From: Nitrosomonas oligotropha
Lineage (GTDB): Bacteria > Pseudomonadota > Gammaproteobacteria > Burkholderiales > Nitrosomonadaceae
Direction of reading: 5' to 3'
Length of the DNA stretch: 64,000 nt
Assembly: GCA_008015635.1 (NCBI GenBank)
Contig: SSFX01000036.1
Location: 6,603-70,602, forward strand
Both the position numbers and the translations under genes were made by a program. A model generated the notes under the pieces. It was not told the DNA's origin. It did not search any database and saw only the letters and a program-made list of their open reading frames with translations. This document shows positions 19,408-28,574 of this stretch, piece after piece. Each line of letters begins with the position of its first letter. Within the stretch, counting starts at the first letter, position 1.

Positions 19408-19478
19408 GGCCAAACTTTCGCTATGCGATCGATGAGCTGGCGGAATTTTGGGAGCAGGCAAGTCATATCGGCGCGCAC

Positions 19479-21485
19479 TTAAAAACGGTAATCCAATCTG
19501 AAACGAACCGTCCGACCAGGCTGCCAGAAAGTGTTTTGCCAATTGGAATCCGCTGCCGGATGCAGATGTTTTCGTTAAATAAGTTATAAATACTGAGCGA
19601 AGCTTCCAGCCCTTTCACCCGGGCAACATGGGTGACCAGATTGAGATTGGCAAGAACATGGCTATCGGTATTACTGCCGTCGAGCGTTTTACGCTTGCCG
19701 TAGTATTGCAATTCATAGCCAGCGCGCATGCCGCTAATCAGCGGGATGGGGATGGAAATATTAATTTTCCCCAAATGATACGGCGAATTGACTAAATGGG
19801 AATCGTGTTGTTCGGCGTTCTGGATACCATAGCTTGCGCGCAACCGGCCTCCGAAATCCGATGTTTTATCGAGAGATAGCTCAGCTCCTCTGGCTAAAAC
19901 TCTTTTTCCAGTTTGTTGATATTGCGACAGCCCGCTGACCGGATCAACACCCAGTGTGATGATATTGTGCATATCCCATTGATAAACCGTTGCGCGCAGA
20001 TTCATACTGGGCAGTGGCAGGTAATCCGCCACAAACTCAGTGGTATCAGCCATTTCGCTCTGTAATTCCGGATTGGTCACTTGGTAGGCGCCATCGCTGT
20101 AATTTCGCTCGAACGAATTGGGTGCGCGATGTGAGCGGCCGTACAGCGCCTTAAATGTGGTTTTCGGAGTCGCTTGCCAGATCAATGCCCCACGCGGGCT
20201 AAACACGCTATCTATCCACTTGTAGTGGTCATAACGCAGTCCCGCGGTTACCGACAGAGTGTCGTTGATGCGCCACTCATCTTGAATGTAGACGCCCATC
20301 CGCAGCAAGGAATTGTGAATCGCGATATTCTGAACGGGATTGTCGAAATTCTGAAAAGCTTGTTTGATGCCGGTGTTGTTCTGATATTCAACACCGAACA
20401 TTAACTTATGATTGGCGATTGCAGTTGAAAGCAGGCGCAATTCGGCGCCGTGCCAATCGCAGGGGCCGGTGGATAAAGTTCTCCCGCCGCTGTAGACCAT
20501 CGGGTTATCGTAGCGGTATTGGCCGAGAAACAGCCGGCCAAGCACGTTCAACGTATCGTTGGCGAAATGATCGTTATATTGAATTTGCGCATTGAGACGG
20601 CGATCGCGCTGAAACTGACCGGTAACTAGCGGATCCGATAAATAAGCGCCCGTTGGATCTTCTTTTTTCCGGTTCCCGTAGATGAAGTCAAATGAAAGCG
20701 GGCCGTACGAAGCGCGGGCAAACATCTGTTTGATGTTCTCTCCATCCATGTGCCGCGCCACCCCGGATAGGCCGGAATCACCAAATTCAAAAAACCGGTT
20801 TACTCCCCTGGACTGAAGGCCCGAAAAGGAAATTAATGCATCCGCACCATTATCGAATTGCTTGCCCAAGGTGACGCGTTCTTGCGGCATCAATTCCGCT
20901 GTCTGATATGACGCGGAGAGTTCGGTGCCTTTCACGCCGGCGCCCTTGCGGGTAATAATATTAACCGCGCCGAGCATGGCATTCAAACCGTATATTGTAC
21001 TGCCAGACCAGTGAATAAATTCAATCCGCTTAATTAAGTCGATATCGAGCGGAGAATCCCATCCCGTAGGGCCTAGATAGTAGGTCGCGTCATTGATGCG
21101 ATTGCCATTAATCGTAATCAGTACACGAGAATTGAATTCTCCGGGCTGACTGAAGCCTCGTGTACCTAGGTTATTCATATTGATAATCGTATGTGGTATG
21201 AATACCGGGTGGGCTTGCCAATGCCTGATTCAGTGAGCGCCAGCCATAGGTGCGGATATCCATGCGTGTAATCACACTGACGGCGGCAGCAGTTTGCTGT
21301 TGCTTTTGCTCATATTTTGAGGCGCACACGATATAGATATCCATTAATTCTTCTATGCTTATCTGCTCTAAATTCTTGGCGGCATAGCCAGGTATCGCTT
21401 GAGTGAAAAGCAGGGATAGCAGCAATGCTTTATAGCGTTGCATTGCTGCGGGTGTTTTTTGCTTGTAAGGCTGTTTAAATAACAT
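19479..21485 (-). pseudogene. TonB-dependent receptor copy 4, frameshifted paralogue of 21498-23501
   Basis: Relative to copy 5, +1 A at ~21171 (TATGAATAACCTAGG vs TATGAATACCTGGG) and -1 T at ~19568 (GAAAACATCTGCAT vs GAAAACTATTTGCAC); restored frame ends LDYRF* at 19479. Confidence 0.85.
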
Positions 21486-23688: not shown

Positions 23689-23994
23689 TTACTGATGCGC
23701 CTCGGTGGCAAGGTGCAGTAATTGGGAGCTTAAGTTTAAGCCGGCTTTTCTCGTCCGATTTAAGTTGGCTTCAAACGTGATTTTGTCATCTTTAATATTC
23801 ATGTTAAGTACAACACCTTGTGCACTTACTCCGGGCTATCCGCCACGGTTAGAACCGGCTTGTCTTTGATGCTATTGATCACGCCCGCCAAATCACCAAT
23901 CGCGGAGCGGGAAATGAAAACCAGCTGGCATTGATCGAGACGATCGGTCGTATTCATTCTATGGATGATCACGCTGCGTTCGTTGATATTCTTT
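23689..23994 (-). pseudogene. yfiR: 3' fragment of yfiR copy 4 (IS-interrupted, additional frameshift)
   Basis: Manual translation KNINERSVIIHR...CQLVFISRSA...KPVLTVADSP then, after a 1-nt shift near 23832, GVSAQGVVLNMNIKDDKITFEANL...GLNLSSQLLHLATEAHQ*. Confidence 0.85.
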
Positions 23995-24007
23995 CGCAAT
24001 TATCCCT

Positions 24008-24036
24008 TTGACATACGGTAATGATTTCTATATACT
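24008..24036 (+). promoter_or_regulatory. Sigma70-type promoter for the transposase, -35 inside left IR
   Basis: TTGACA-17 bp-TATACT, followed by AGGAG RBS before ATG 24063. Confidence 0.7.
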
Positions 24037-24062
24037 GATTCCATCGTTAGGAGATCAGCAAC

Positions 24063-24929
24063 ATGAAACCGATTACACTTCGTCAGTTCTTTAAACAGTT
24101 TCCAGATGACCAATCATGCTTGGAACACTTGTTTAATGTCCGCTTTGGTAAAGGTCACAAATGCCCAAAATGCGAGCGCGAAGCTAAATGGTATCCAATC
24201 AAATCTGAGCGCGCTTATTCTTGCCAATGGTGCGGTCATCATCTTCACCCTACAGTTGGAACATTGTTTGAAAAATCCAGAACATCATTACAACTTTGGT
24301 TCTATGCAATTTACCTGTTCACCACAACACGTCATGGCGTTTCTGGCAAAGAGCTTCAACGCCAGCTTGGCGTAACCTACAAATGCGCCTATCGCATGGG
24401 GCAGCAAATTAGAGAACATATGGCCAGTGTTGACGGTGAATCCATGCTTTCCGGTCATATTGAAATAGATGAAACATACATCGGCGGCAAAAGACCTGGT
24501 AAACGCGGACGCGGCGCCGATGGTAAAACCGTTATATTTGGAATGATGCAACGTGATGGCGATGTTATGACTCATGTTGTCCCTGACGTTAAGAGAAAAA
24601 CACTGCATCCGATAATTAACGCCAATGTAGAAACTGGCAGCACAATATCAACTGATGAACTAAGATCATATAACGGCCTAAACAATTCAGGATATGTCCA
24701 CAATACTGTTAATCATGGTATTGGCCAGTATGCTCATGGTGATACTCACGTTAACAGCATGGAAGGTTACTGGGCGCATTTGAAAAAGAGTATCCGCAGC
24801 ACTCATATCCATGTGTCTGAAAAACACTTGGCAAAATATGCCAAAGAATTTGAGTATAGATTTAATTCTCGGAAGAATCCTGAGACGATGTTTCCTGAGT
24901 TGATTTCGACTTTTCAGGATGAGAAATAG
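24063..24929 (+). CDS. IS1595-family (ISXO2-like) DDE transposase with Zn ribbon
   Basis: CPKC/CQWC Zn ribbon, HTH LQRQLGVTYKCAY, EIDETYIGG, ISTDE, VNH, HVNSMEGYW, EFEYRFN. Confidence 0.95.
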   Translation: MKPITLRQFFKQFPDDQSCLEHLFNVRFGKGHKCPKCEREAKWYPIKSERAYSCQWCGHHLHPTVGTLFEKSRTSLQLWFYAIYLFTTTRHGVSGKELQRQLGVTYKCAYRMGQQIREHMASVDGESMLSGHIEIDETYIGGKRPGKRGRGADGKTVIFGMMQRDGDVMTHVVPDVKRKTLHPIINANVETGSTISTDELRSYNGLNNSGYVHNTVNHGIGQYAHGDTHVNSMEGYWAHLKKSIRSTHIHVSEKHLAKYAKEFEYRFNSRKNPETMFPELISTFQDEK

Positions 24930-25038
24930 CAGCTAGGGTTTTATCAAACATATCCTTATCGCCAGAGGCATCTTCCTCATGCTCTTTGATAAATTCTTCT
25001 AGGTTTCCTTGTTCTTTAGCTTTCTTTAGTGTTGTCAT
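24862..25038 (-). CDS. Small acidic IS passenger protein (~58 aa) overlapping transposase 3' end
   Basis: MTTLKKAKEQGNLEEFIKEHEE...GDKDMFDKTL; start overlaps stop region of upstream cargo gene. Confidence 0.5.
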   Translation of the reverse strand: MTTLKKAKEQGNLEEFIKEHEEDASGDKDMFDKTLAAISHPEKSKSTQETSSQDSSEN

Positions 25039-25483
25039 CAATCGGCTCTCCATCAGAAATTACGTGCATAATATGAACCACATCTATCATTGATAAAGTA
25101 GCTACAAGTAGCATTATTAGGCAGAATGAATTAAATAGTGATACTTCCATTAAATTTGTATCTGCCACTCCGCCTCTTAGTATCAAAGCAAAAAGCACCA
25201 AAATAAATGACAGTCCAAGAGCCCAAGTTGTTTGGTTTATCTCTCTCCTGGCTTCAGGGAATATTTTCTCTTTCAGTCTTCTTTCAATTCTTCCAAACTC
25301 TAAGTGAACCTGAGTTATAGAAACTAATGTTACTGTAACAATTACGGCCAATATATTAAGGATTTCATGATTGATAAAATTGGCTAGAAATGTATTTTTA
25401 GATAAAATTTCAGGTGTGACTATTGATATAGTGATCAATGATGCTGATACAACAATAGTTATCACTCCAAATAATATCTTCAT
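25016..25483 (-). CDS. Four-TM membrane protein, IS passenger (candidate RexB/KwaA-like effector)
   Basis: Four hydrophobic stretches (~3-22, 41-59, 87-103, 115-135) with a charged central loop; ATGA overlap with upstream gene. Confidence 0.75.
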   Translation of the reverse strand: MKILFGVITIVVSASLITISIVTPEILSKNTFLANFINHEILNILAVIVTVTLVSITQVHLEFGRIERRLKEKIFPEARREINQTTWALGLSFILVLFALILRGGVADTNLMEVSLFNSFCLIMLLVATLSMIDVVHIMHVISDGEPIDDNTKES

Positions 25484-26319
25484 CTTTTTATCTTTCCATC
25501 AATATCATCTTTAGGAGTTTTGCCAGCATCAAGCATATCTTTTACTTCATCAGGCAACGCAAGCGATTCAGCATTGTCATCAGATGAATAAACAATATGT
25601 TTTCCTGATTTTGCTTTTGCAACACCAGCACCTCCCTCAACATATGCAACGGATGATCTCACATCATCATCATTAAGCATGATTCCATCGGGATTTCTGA
25701 TCTTTATATCTACGTTCTTTGCATTGTTTCTTTCCTTATATTTATTCAAACTTTTCCTAGTAGCATCAGAGCCACCAAAGAACATATTAGGAACAACATA
25801 AGAGAAGGATAATTCCGTAATTGGATCAGGATATTCTGCTACAGCTTCCCAAAAACCATTCTTTTTTGGAAGAACGAAAGAATCTATTTTGTATTCGTTT
25901 GACCCGGCGTATCTGTTTATGTGACTAACCAAAGCACTTACTAGTGCGACACCTGTTCCTACTTCATTATTTTGTTCAATAAAAGCTACTTGTTGGTTTT
26001 CATCGATATTAAGTATAAAAACAGATTTTTCCCAATAATCTACTGCTATTGGTCTCAATCCTTCTTCTGGTGGAGAAAAGTGCTGTTTAACAATTCTTTT
26101 CCCTATCGCTCCATACACATATATACCATCGCTTCCAGAACCTATATACGTATATTCTTTGTCACGATAAATGAATTGCCAATCCTTTCCAAAAGCAGTT
26201 TGTAGAAATTTCGCTCTTGTTGGACGATTATTTCCTTTTACCAATCCATCAAAAAGTTTAAGTTCATGCCTTTCTGTCAACGACAGTCTGAGCAGATTTC
26301 CTTTCACCACATCTCCCAA
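25480..26319 (-). CDS. Soluble ~275-279 aa IS passenger protein (candidate DUF4747/RexA/KwaB-like, RdgC-type fold)
   Basis: Long AT-rich ORF with alternating strand/helix pattern, FWEAV...ITELSFSYVVPN motif; start may be GTG 26307 after GGAGA. Confidence 0.7.
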   Translation of the reverse strand: MGDVVKGNLLRLSLTERHELKLFDGLVKGNNRPTRAKFLQTAFGKDWQFIYRDKEYTYIGSGSDGIYVYGAIGKRIVKQHFSPPEEGLRPIAVDYWEKSVFILNIDENQQVAFIEQNNEVGTGVALVSALVSHINRYAGSNEYKIDSFVLPKKNGFWEAVAEYPDPITELSFSYVVPNMFFGGSDATRKSLNKYKERNNAKNVDIKIRNPDGIMLNDDDVRSSVAYVEGGAGVAKAKSGKHIVYSSDDNAESLALPDEVKDMLDAGKTPKDDIDGKIKR

Positions 26320-26404
26320 AAATGCTAATGTAATTAGTGAAAGATTTTAGCATTACGTATAAAATCTGCTTGGATTTTGTACGTATGCTAAAGGGATAAT
26401 TGCC

Positions 26405-26638: not shown

Positions 26639-28574
26639 TTAGAAACGCAACGTGAACCGGCCAAAAACGCCGCGCTGAATTTGTACTGGCATCGTCGGGA
26701 TCAACTCCGGTGCGAACTCCTGATGGTGTGACTGTAACAAATTCTGCCCGATTACTGATAGTTCCATATTTGCTTTAGGCTTCCACGCCAATCGTAAATC
26801 CAATGCTTGGTAACTGGCCACCTTCAGTCCCGGTAATTTATCGATATGACGGAAAAAGGCATCTAGCTCAACGTTCTTGACCAAATCTAGTTGCGTGCGC
26901 AAAGTGAATTGATGTTTGGGATCTCCACCCGATTCGGCTTCCTGGCCAAGCGGTACCTGTTTTCTCACTTGCAAGTGGCTATAACTGAGCATGAAACGCA
27001 ACCAATGCAAATGCATTCCATTATCTGAATCGTTGCCGGTGCGACTTCCGATTCACTGGAAGAATGATTATAGTCGTTGAAAAATCCCGCAATATCGACC
27101 GACAGATCGGATGCGATCTGTCGCCGGTAACCGGTTTCGAATCCCCATAGGGTCTCGGCCAGCAGATGCGGATTGCTGATGAGGCGAATAAATTCCGCGC
27201 CGTCCCGGATCAACTGATTGCCGTCGCGTTCAAAGCGGGATGGCAAGCGTATCGAGCGAGTTGCGGATGCCCAGAAAGACTGTTTAGCATCGGGTGTCCA
27301 CAGCAAGCGGGCATTGGGTAAGAAATTTCCGTGTGTGTAGGTGTGATCGAGAAATTTAATCCCCGCAGTTAGTTTCAGCCGGTCTTCCACAAGAGGAATA
27401 TCGGTTTGTGCGAAAACATTGCCGGTCTGCAAGTGGCGTCTTGCGGGATCTAAAGAAGTCGGCAAGCCACACCCAGGTGATCCGTTGTCCAGCGATAGCC
27501 GCCACCCCAGACGATATCCTGCTGAATAGGAACGAAAGGAATTTGTAACGGAAAACGATGTTGAAAATCCACATCGACGGTCTGGCGGGTTTCCTGGAAA
27601 GATAATTCGTTGCGATGCGTGCGATCATAATAGACTTGCAATGCGGTATTGGAACGCTCGCCGGTGGTGCGCTGCCAGCGAGCCAATGCATGCCCGCCGG
27701 CTAGATTGTCGTCTTCCGCGCGAATAGTTGCGGATTCTGGATCAGCGGGGTTGGCGAAAGCCGTATTCTGACCGACTTTACCATCGTAGTACTGACCTTG
27801 AAAAGTCAAGGCATTGCTGTCGTTAACATCCCAATCCGGGCGGAAACCTACCGTTCCGATGCGCCAGCTGTCGTTGGCCCCGCTCGGACTGAAGCTGTTA
27901 TCGCAAGTGAATCCTTTGGTGAAGAAGCGATAAAAAAAGCTTTCTCCGATTTTGCCGCCGTGGCGTAGCGTGGTGAATCCTCGTTCCTTGCTTCCGCCGC
28001 CTGAGGTGATTAAAATTACCTTGTGTGGTTCTGCTGGCATGCTTGGTGATGATGTGAATGGCGCCATTGGCGGCATTCGCGCCCCAGATGGGGCCACTCG
28101 GCCCGTGGATGACTTCGATGCGTTCGATATCTTCCAACGGAAGATCCAGTGTTTCCCAAAATGTTCCGGCAAACAACGGAGAATAGACCGTACGACCATC
28201 GATCATCACCAGCAAGTCGTCGGCAAAGCGGTCGCTGTATCCGCGCGAGGTCACCGACCATTTGTTCGCACGATGCGTACCACGGATAAACCGGGTGCCA
28301 TGCGTAGCAGTTCAGGAATGCTATTGGCGCTGGCGCGGCGGGTATCTTCCTAGGAAATGACAAAAACTGCCGCAGGCGTGTCACTCAAGGTTTGCGGCTT
28401 GCGTGAGACAGTCGATATTTTGGTACTCATCAATTCGGCAAGTGAAGTGTCGGAAATATCTTGTTTCAACGGCATATTTTGTGCCGTGACCGCAGTCGTA
28501 GCTGGAAATAAGAGAAAAAGCAGCAGCCGAATCCAAGTTAAACGCATTGCTTGTTGATTTGAAGTCGCGATCAT
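26639..28574 (-). pseudogene. TonB-dependent receptor copy 6, multiply frameshifted with nonsense codon
   Basis: Consecutive ORF pieces carry signal peptide/SLAELMSTKI, IERIEVIHGP, barrel strands and C-terminal TLRF; in-frame TAG at 28350-28352. Confidence 0.88.

Follow-up and report, generated by a model that had tools for sequence, protein, structure and literature searches.

A RexAB-like gene pair carried by an IS1595-family transposon of Nitrosomonas oligotropha

In a 64,000 nt stretch of Nitrosomonas oligotropha contig SSFX01000036.1 (positions 6,603 to 70,602; the window), a 2410 bp IS1595-family transposon carries two coupled genes, designated A and B, which probably specify an abortive-infection system of the RexAB type, in which, by analogy with described phage systems, A would be a dimeric DNA-clamping sensor and B a membrane effector. 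The pair probably works like systems of a known kind, yet lies outside the lambda RexA/RexB sequence families. An earlier note, made from the sequence alone, had described an AT-rich, translationally coupled operon opposite an IS1595 transposase and between terminal inverted repeats (TIRs), and this description holds, as the open reading frames (ORFs), an ATGA overlap of A and B at 25480-25483, the GC content (cargo 0.35, transposase 0.42, genome 0.49) and the TIRs all agree. The coordinates that it gave (24862..26404) cover the cargo, but the whole element, consisting of the transposase and two passenger genes, spans 23995-26404 (Table 1).

The transposase matches PF12762 (E 2e-45), PF12760 and NF033547 (E 1e-63), which together with the TIRs bears out the proposed IS1595 element with passengers. 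The inverted repeats (23996-24017 and 26382-26403; 22 nt, 91% complementary) enclose the transposase, A and B. A left TIR without its first base was considered and dropped, since the left end of a sister element (L081) starts identically with CGCAATTATCCC. The element interrupts a host gene of the YfiR/DUF4154 family, an intact copy of which (the empty site) is found in genome G010. Compared with G010, the window lacks 53 bp of this gene beside the left end of the element, a loss likely caused by an adjacent deletion by the transposase, and because of it the window element has no target-site duplication. One blastn match, and thus one copy, is present in the 86%-complete assembly (G000), and the element interior was found in none of 40 relatives. 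In public runs X2 (left) and X3 (right), pieces 96–98% identical that span transposase and cargo have other flanks (one contig each), and the element is present at more than one insertion site; run X2 also contains the empty YfiR site, and the window itself may stem from run X1. A second, partial IS1595-like transposase match lies elsewhere in the genome (G000:C47:6043-6411, 37% over 123 aa).

The earlier note's soluble protein of about 275–279 aa and 155-aa protein with four transmembrane helices were both recovered, from the ORFs, the four hydrophobic segments in the B sequence and a four-helix model. The GTG at 26307 is the likelier start codon of A, rather than a TTG at 26319 (279 aa), because GGGAGA directly precedes it and 275 aa is also the length of its four nearest homologues. 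In fold comparison, the predicted fold of A is the split two-domain fold of RexA and RdgC, with RexA as the top VIA match at a structural identity of 5–9%, and conserved basic positions are found at R11, R35, K74 and K237. The model of B is a bundle of four long helices (pLDDT 88), with conserved polar residues in or near the helices (N30, T52, S55, H60, E67 and N118). Its matches among PDB folds are generic, and the best viral fold match, a weak one (E 0.54), is a 165-aa Sbash protein that is probably gp31, as identified by length only. In the Atlas, the nearest named cluster to B has RexB on 10% of its members, with a score of 0.80, below the bar of the tool. Prediction of an A2+B complex scored 0.00 in two runs, a result that speaks neither for nor against binding.

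Neither Pfam nor PADLOC 2.0 recognises the pair, and B has no PADLOC match at E values up to 1, in line with the suggestion that the system may be unnamed. The A family is large (684 clusters at 50% identity), yet none of 133 members matched the lambda RexA/RexB families (PF15969, PF15968 and the PADLOC RexA/RexB models), while lambda's own RexA and RexB were strongly matched by the same models. RexB was matched by none of the 53 members of the B alignment. Profile comparisons of the A and B families with the lambda and Sbash proteins gave no signal (B was blank against both RexB and gp31), and neither profile retrieved anything in PDB sequence searches. PF15931 (DUF4747) is not matched by A of the window and is matched by 2 of the 133 relatives at E up to 0.01 (best E 1.7e-5); Atlas clusters near A carry DUF4747 on 10–29% of members, and Sbash gp30 itself has no Pfam match. 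A fold like those of DUF4747 proteins, RexA and KwaB had been proposed for A; the predicted RexA/RdgC-like fold and the similarity to DUF4747-bearing clusters sustain the first two parts, but the link to Kiwa is not supported, as DUF4868 and the PADLOC Kwa models matched 0/133 members of the A family at E up to 0.01. Kiwa chains are not among the listed fold matches of A and B, their presence in the libraries not having been checked.

Among described systems, the pair shares with lambda RexA-RexB the order of soluble then membrane protein, the sizes (275–279 and 144–155 aa), the four transmembrane helices and, in four loci of the family, a CI-like gene upstream. It differs in having no match by hidden Markov model or profile and in being borne here by an IS1595 element without a repressor. 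Sbash gp30-gp31 and CarolAnn gp44-gp43 likewise combine a DUF4747-like soluble protein with a partner of four transmembrane helices, but A is about 100 aa shorter than Sbash gp30 (372 aa). According to PMC12894663, RexABpp of P. putida (PP_5643-5644) is also a proteobacterial pair known only by remote fold likeness and a partner with four transmembrane helices; it is prophage-borne. Kiwa (KwaA-KwaB) also joins a membrane protein of four helices to a soluble DNA-binding dimer, but KwaB is defined by DUF4868 and, according to PMC11785009, sensing falls to the membrane protein and action to its soluble partner. Operons of the DUF4747/CarolAnn type are described in bacteria behind CapKS regulators (PMC13373217).

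Scans for the A family, made with a nine-member sub-clade 18–27% identical to A of the window, found 47 genome loci and 5 viral loci. The earlier note had made co-occurrence of the two genes in other genomes a check on its proposal, and B, sought with a profile built from its own close homologues only, lies directly after A in 45/47 genome loci and beside A in all five viral loci; in L054 it is 0.8 kb away, and the last locus is at a contig edge. Near-duplicates are present (L018/L062 and L014/L039), and in L042, L058 and L068 a broken A or B stands beside an intact partner. The pair, with weaker B matches, is also found in two further genomes, G801 and G400. The family is seldom met: counting the window, it occurs in 3 of 401 genomes from the phylum and in 3 of 121 from the genus, one of these last three being marginal. 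By Pfam annotation of 257 neighbour representatives, CI-like S24 genes are found upstream of the pair in L015, L016, L017 and L063, as in lambda, and other loci sit within prophages, close to integrases, or singly among housekeeping genes. Examples of the last are L049, L052, L055, L056 (beside recA), L059 and L065, where no transposase, and no TIRs with a duplication, were found. In a genome of the same genus (L085:5065-8295, G801), the pair comes after a phage gene for replication protein A, within an island that has an integrase and is rich in insertion sequences (ISs). Enrichment in classical defence islands is not shown: in a comparison without a background control, PADLOC matched few defence neighbours among 65 chosen proteins (HmaA for L031, a methyltransferase for L037 and NERD-UvrD for G400), and the pair is more often part of a prophage or an IS1595 element, or stands by itself amid housekeeping genes. 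No match to A was found in plasmids or phages by tblastn, and a viral scan with alignment A6 confirmed none of 57 candidates. Seven metagenome loci (L019-L025; 30% identity over 88 codons, E ~1e-4) were judged to be chance matches and dropped.

An IS1595 transposase stands beside the pair in 8 of the 47 loci and is found nowhere else in the 541,545 bases of those loci. Three (L057, L066 and L070) have the layout of the window element, with a length of 2.4 kb, TIRs and, unlike the window, exact 8-bp target-site duplications. Larger elements of another subgroup, with transposases 23–27% identical to that of the window, are found in L047 (exact duplication), L041 (7/8) and L061 (none), and the ends of the elements in L037 and L053 were not found. 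The compact type probably corresponds to ISSod11/ISNwi1 and the larger type to ISNha5. In addition to the pair, L047:1247-5361 carries a ParE/Phd toxin-antitoxin pair, and L041:6865-11108 a KilA-N gene matching PDC-S13. Other TIR and duplication matches in L041 (9.6 kb), L064 and L065 were rejected as low-identity, GC-rich chance matches.

The pair was captured or swapped more than once by IS1595 elements, as the A tree, the transposase tree and the contrast in identities indicate. Transposases of the window and of L057, L066 and L070 are 50–54% identical, but the A proteins only 22–24%. In the A tree, IS-linked and phage-linked copies need at least four changes and show no clustering beyond shuffles (39/500), and the three compact elements fall inside a starred clade of prophage copies; in a quick transposase tree, the four compact Rex carriers were rejected as one clade (p-AU 0.009). 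From these sequences, pairing with IS1595 lineages must have happened on at least three separate occasions. A direct hint comes from public run X15, where a 95% identical transposase gives way to dissimilar sequence immediately past the stop codon at 24929 (one contig, with 55 loose letters), as expected from a cargo swap.

In related transposons the slot is filled by many other passengers, and a sizeable part of these resemble defence genes. Complete sister elements, with transposases 53–58% identical to that of the window, exact 8-bp duplications and different convergent passengers, were found in 4 of 300 genomes, and carry an EcoRI-like type II restriction-modification (R-M) pair, a type IIG-like enzyme, PDC-S42, or two unknown genes. 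A further 89 transposase loci were collected (80 viral, 2 plasmid, 7 genome), of which 12 had too little flank and 77 could be tested. TIRs and an exact duplication were present in 34 of these, all 1.4–3.6 kb and all with passengers; the largest passenger is convergent in 33/34, and RexAB-like in none. The other 43 loci (40–67% identical transposases, many on viral contigs) have no detected TIRs with exact duplication, and may be older insertions, bare ISs or domesticated genes. When 52 of the 54 passenger ORFs of these elements were run against PADLOC, 11 proteins, spread over 10 of 33 distinct elements, gave matches (E up to 1e-12), namely methyltransferases, PDC-S42, PDC-S45, HEC-09, CapP-like and SspD-like proteins, several of them partial. 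All ten elements are on viral contigs (genome and plasmid elements, 0/8), and phage-borne methyltransferases may have an anti-restriction role. Overall, 13/37 complete sisters have a PADLOC-matched passenger and 24/37 do not, without a background control. The window transposase itself had no match in phages at 1e-40.

Individual sisters illustrate the variety of cargo. L081:2496-5883 (G448) is a complete element with an EcoRI-family endonuclease and methyltransferase and an exact duplication. L082:4961-8427 (G676), L117 and L150 carry single passengers of 790–805 aa, either a type IIG-like enzyme or a fusion of a type I methyltransferase with a specificity-like domain. The PADLOC candidate genes PDC-S42 and PDC-S45 turn up repeatedly as cargo of distinct sisters (L083:4944-7408 of G544, L101, L102 and L149), and some passengers of the transposase sub-clade of L113, L114 and L183 are genes for CapP-like metallopeptidases, accompanied by small neighbours (matches to PADLOC capP in L113 and L114). 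The described tIS elements MTnSag1 and tISCpe8 share the IS1595 DDE transposase, TIRs of about 25 bp, an internal passenger and, with the sisters, the 8-bp target duplication, but according to PMC5704250 their cargo is lincosamide resistance, and neither a RexAB-like pair nor the R-M and putative defence genes of the sisters. A search of the open literature showed no report of defence cargo, Rex-like or other, in IS1595 elements; subscription journals and ISfinder lay outside this search, and the CapKS data set and supplements on RexA homologues could include family members.

In the RexAB-type system that we favour, A would dimerize into a RexA/RdgC-like DNA clamp that recognizes either phage DNA-protein complexes or some protein of the phage. 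It would then trigger B, which would oligomerize and depolarize or permeabilize the inner membrane, stalling the infected cell and causing the phage burst to fail. The transposon supplies mobility: its transposase takes up one side of the element, and the opposite side is a convergent slot whose passengers can be exchanged. Dimerization, DNA binding, activation of B by A, membrane damage and phage protection are all extrapolated from lambda, Sbash, CarolAnn and P. putida. The roles could be reversed, with B holding or sensing and the clamp A acting as an effector that, once released or activated, binds phage DNA and stalls replication without membrane damage. Butters gp30 is DUF4747-like and has a partner with four transmembrane helices (gp31), yet protects alone, and Kiwa combines a four-helix sensor with a DNA-threading KwaB dimer. 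The conserved basic positions of A would suit such an effector. However, the membrane protein is the effector in four of the five described Rex-like systems, the DUF4868 domain that defines Kiwa was matched by none of the 133 members of the A family, and the conserved polar residues of B fit a pore, though not specifically; we regard the reversed arrangement as unlikely.

Two further explanations would make phage defence incidental or absent. As an addiction module resembling a toxin-antitoxin system, the pair would maintain its transposon or prophage by arresting cells upon gene loss or product imbalance. Rex systems are sensitive to stoichiometry, R-M pairs, which can act as addiction modules, occur among the sister passengers, and there is a ParE/Phd pair in the L047 element and a HicB neighbour in L054. 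Yet clean loss of a single chromosomal IS is rare, the broken genes beside intact partners (L042, L058 and L068) do not fit a strict toxin-antitoxin logic, at least one way round, and the cI-linked position in prophages is that of lysogenically expressed exclusion genes; we consider addiction improbable. About as improbable, and rated lowest, is a role outside defence, such as tuning of a lysis-lysogeny switch or of recombination (shown for lambda RexA and RdgC), the transposon having picked up the pair as neutral cargo. RexA biases the lambda switch, exclusion possibly being a by-product, the unmatched passengers of the 24 sisters indicate that not all cargo is recognizable defence, and the pair is rare in the genus. 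Most loci, however, have no nearby repressor, and still B is kept beside A almost always; repeated pairing with IS1595 lineages and the open state of both frames, while the adjoining host gene has decayed, also speak against this reading.

Table 1. Features of the transposon and its insertion site in the window
Feature	Position	Strand	Basis or remark
YfiR/DUF4154 host gene, 3' part (left limit approximate)	23690..23994	-	Comparison with G010; 53 bp absent at junction, extra 1-bp frameshift near 23835
IS1595-family transposon with two passengers	23995..26404	.	TIRs; junctions against empty site in G010; one blastn match in G000
Left TIR	23995..24017	+	Starts CGCAATTATCCC; holds -35 hexamer of transposase promoter-like site
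Sigma-70-like site TTGACA-17-TATACT, 11/12, 5' of transposase	24008..24036	+	Consensus match only
IS1595 transposase, 288 aa, Zn ribbon and DDE domain, open frame	24063..24929	+	Domain searches
Gene B, membrane protein of 155 aa with four helices, like RexB in architecture and position; predicted effector	25016..25483	-	Hydrophobicity, model
Gene A, soluble protein of 275 aa; split two-domain fold of RexA/RdgC type and role as DNA-clamping sensor both predicted	25480..26307	-	ORF, homologues, fold model
8-bp perfect inverted repeat AGATTTTA-10-TAAAATCT, overlapping extended -10-like motif (minus strand); candidate cargo promoter/operator	26342..26367	.	By eye
Right TIR	26382..26404	-	Starts GGCAATTATCCC
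YfiR/DUF4154 host gene, 5' part, 74 codons	26405..26626	-	Comparison with empty site

The TIR consensus end CCC(T)TTGA supplies the -35 hexamer in the left TIRs of the window, L081-L084 and most characterized sister elements; many right TIRs share these letters, and might drive the passengers. No minus-strand site was called by the promoter scan at the candidate cargo promoter (26342..26367), and in RNA run X15 the transposase is covered and the cargo is not, but as these are assembled contigs only, this says nothing about transcription of the cargo. Around the insertion, the neighbouring TonB-dependent receptor, YfiR, hybrid kinase and EAL genes are tandem paralogues with a spacing of 2020 bp and about 72% identity (19463-21485 and 26639-28384, both minus strand), and several receptor copies are split across frames, like the YfiR gene interrupted by the transposon.

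According to a paper of January 2026, the RexAB-like systems described number only five, all prophage-borne. A large family missed by PADLOC 2.0 and Pfam, compact and without phage regulators, offers a clean test bed for the question of how RexA triggers RexB. More tentatively, and with the balance tilting slightly against it, the IS1595 clade could be the smallest self-mobile defence cassette, with one transposase and one convergent, exchangeable slot right after its stop codon, filled by RexAB-like pairs, type II/IIG R-M, PDC-S42/S45, HEC-09 or CapP-like genes. In that case the slot would serve as a hotspot for discovery, as do those of P2/P4 prophages; the passengers without a match, roughly two-thirds of the total, would represent new anti-phage genes or, where phages carry them, genes for counter-defence; and the RexAB-like family would shuttle between prophage immunity regions and these transposons. 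If these transposons are indeed vehicles for defence cargo, the position of the slot offers a simple rule by which new defence genes can be mined, and the IS1595 route would scatter such genes singly between housekeeping genes, outside defence islands.
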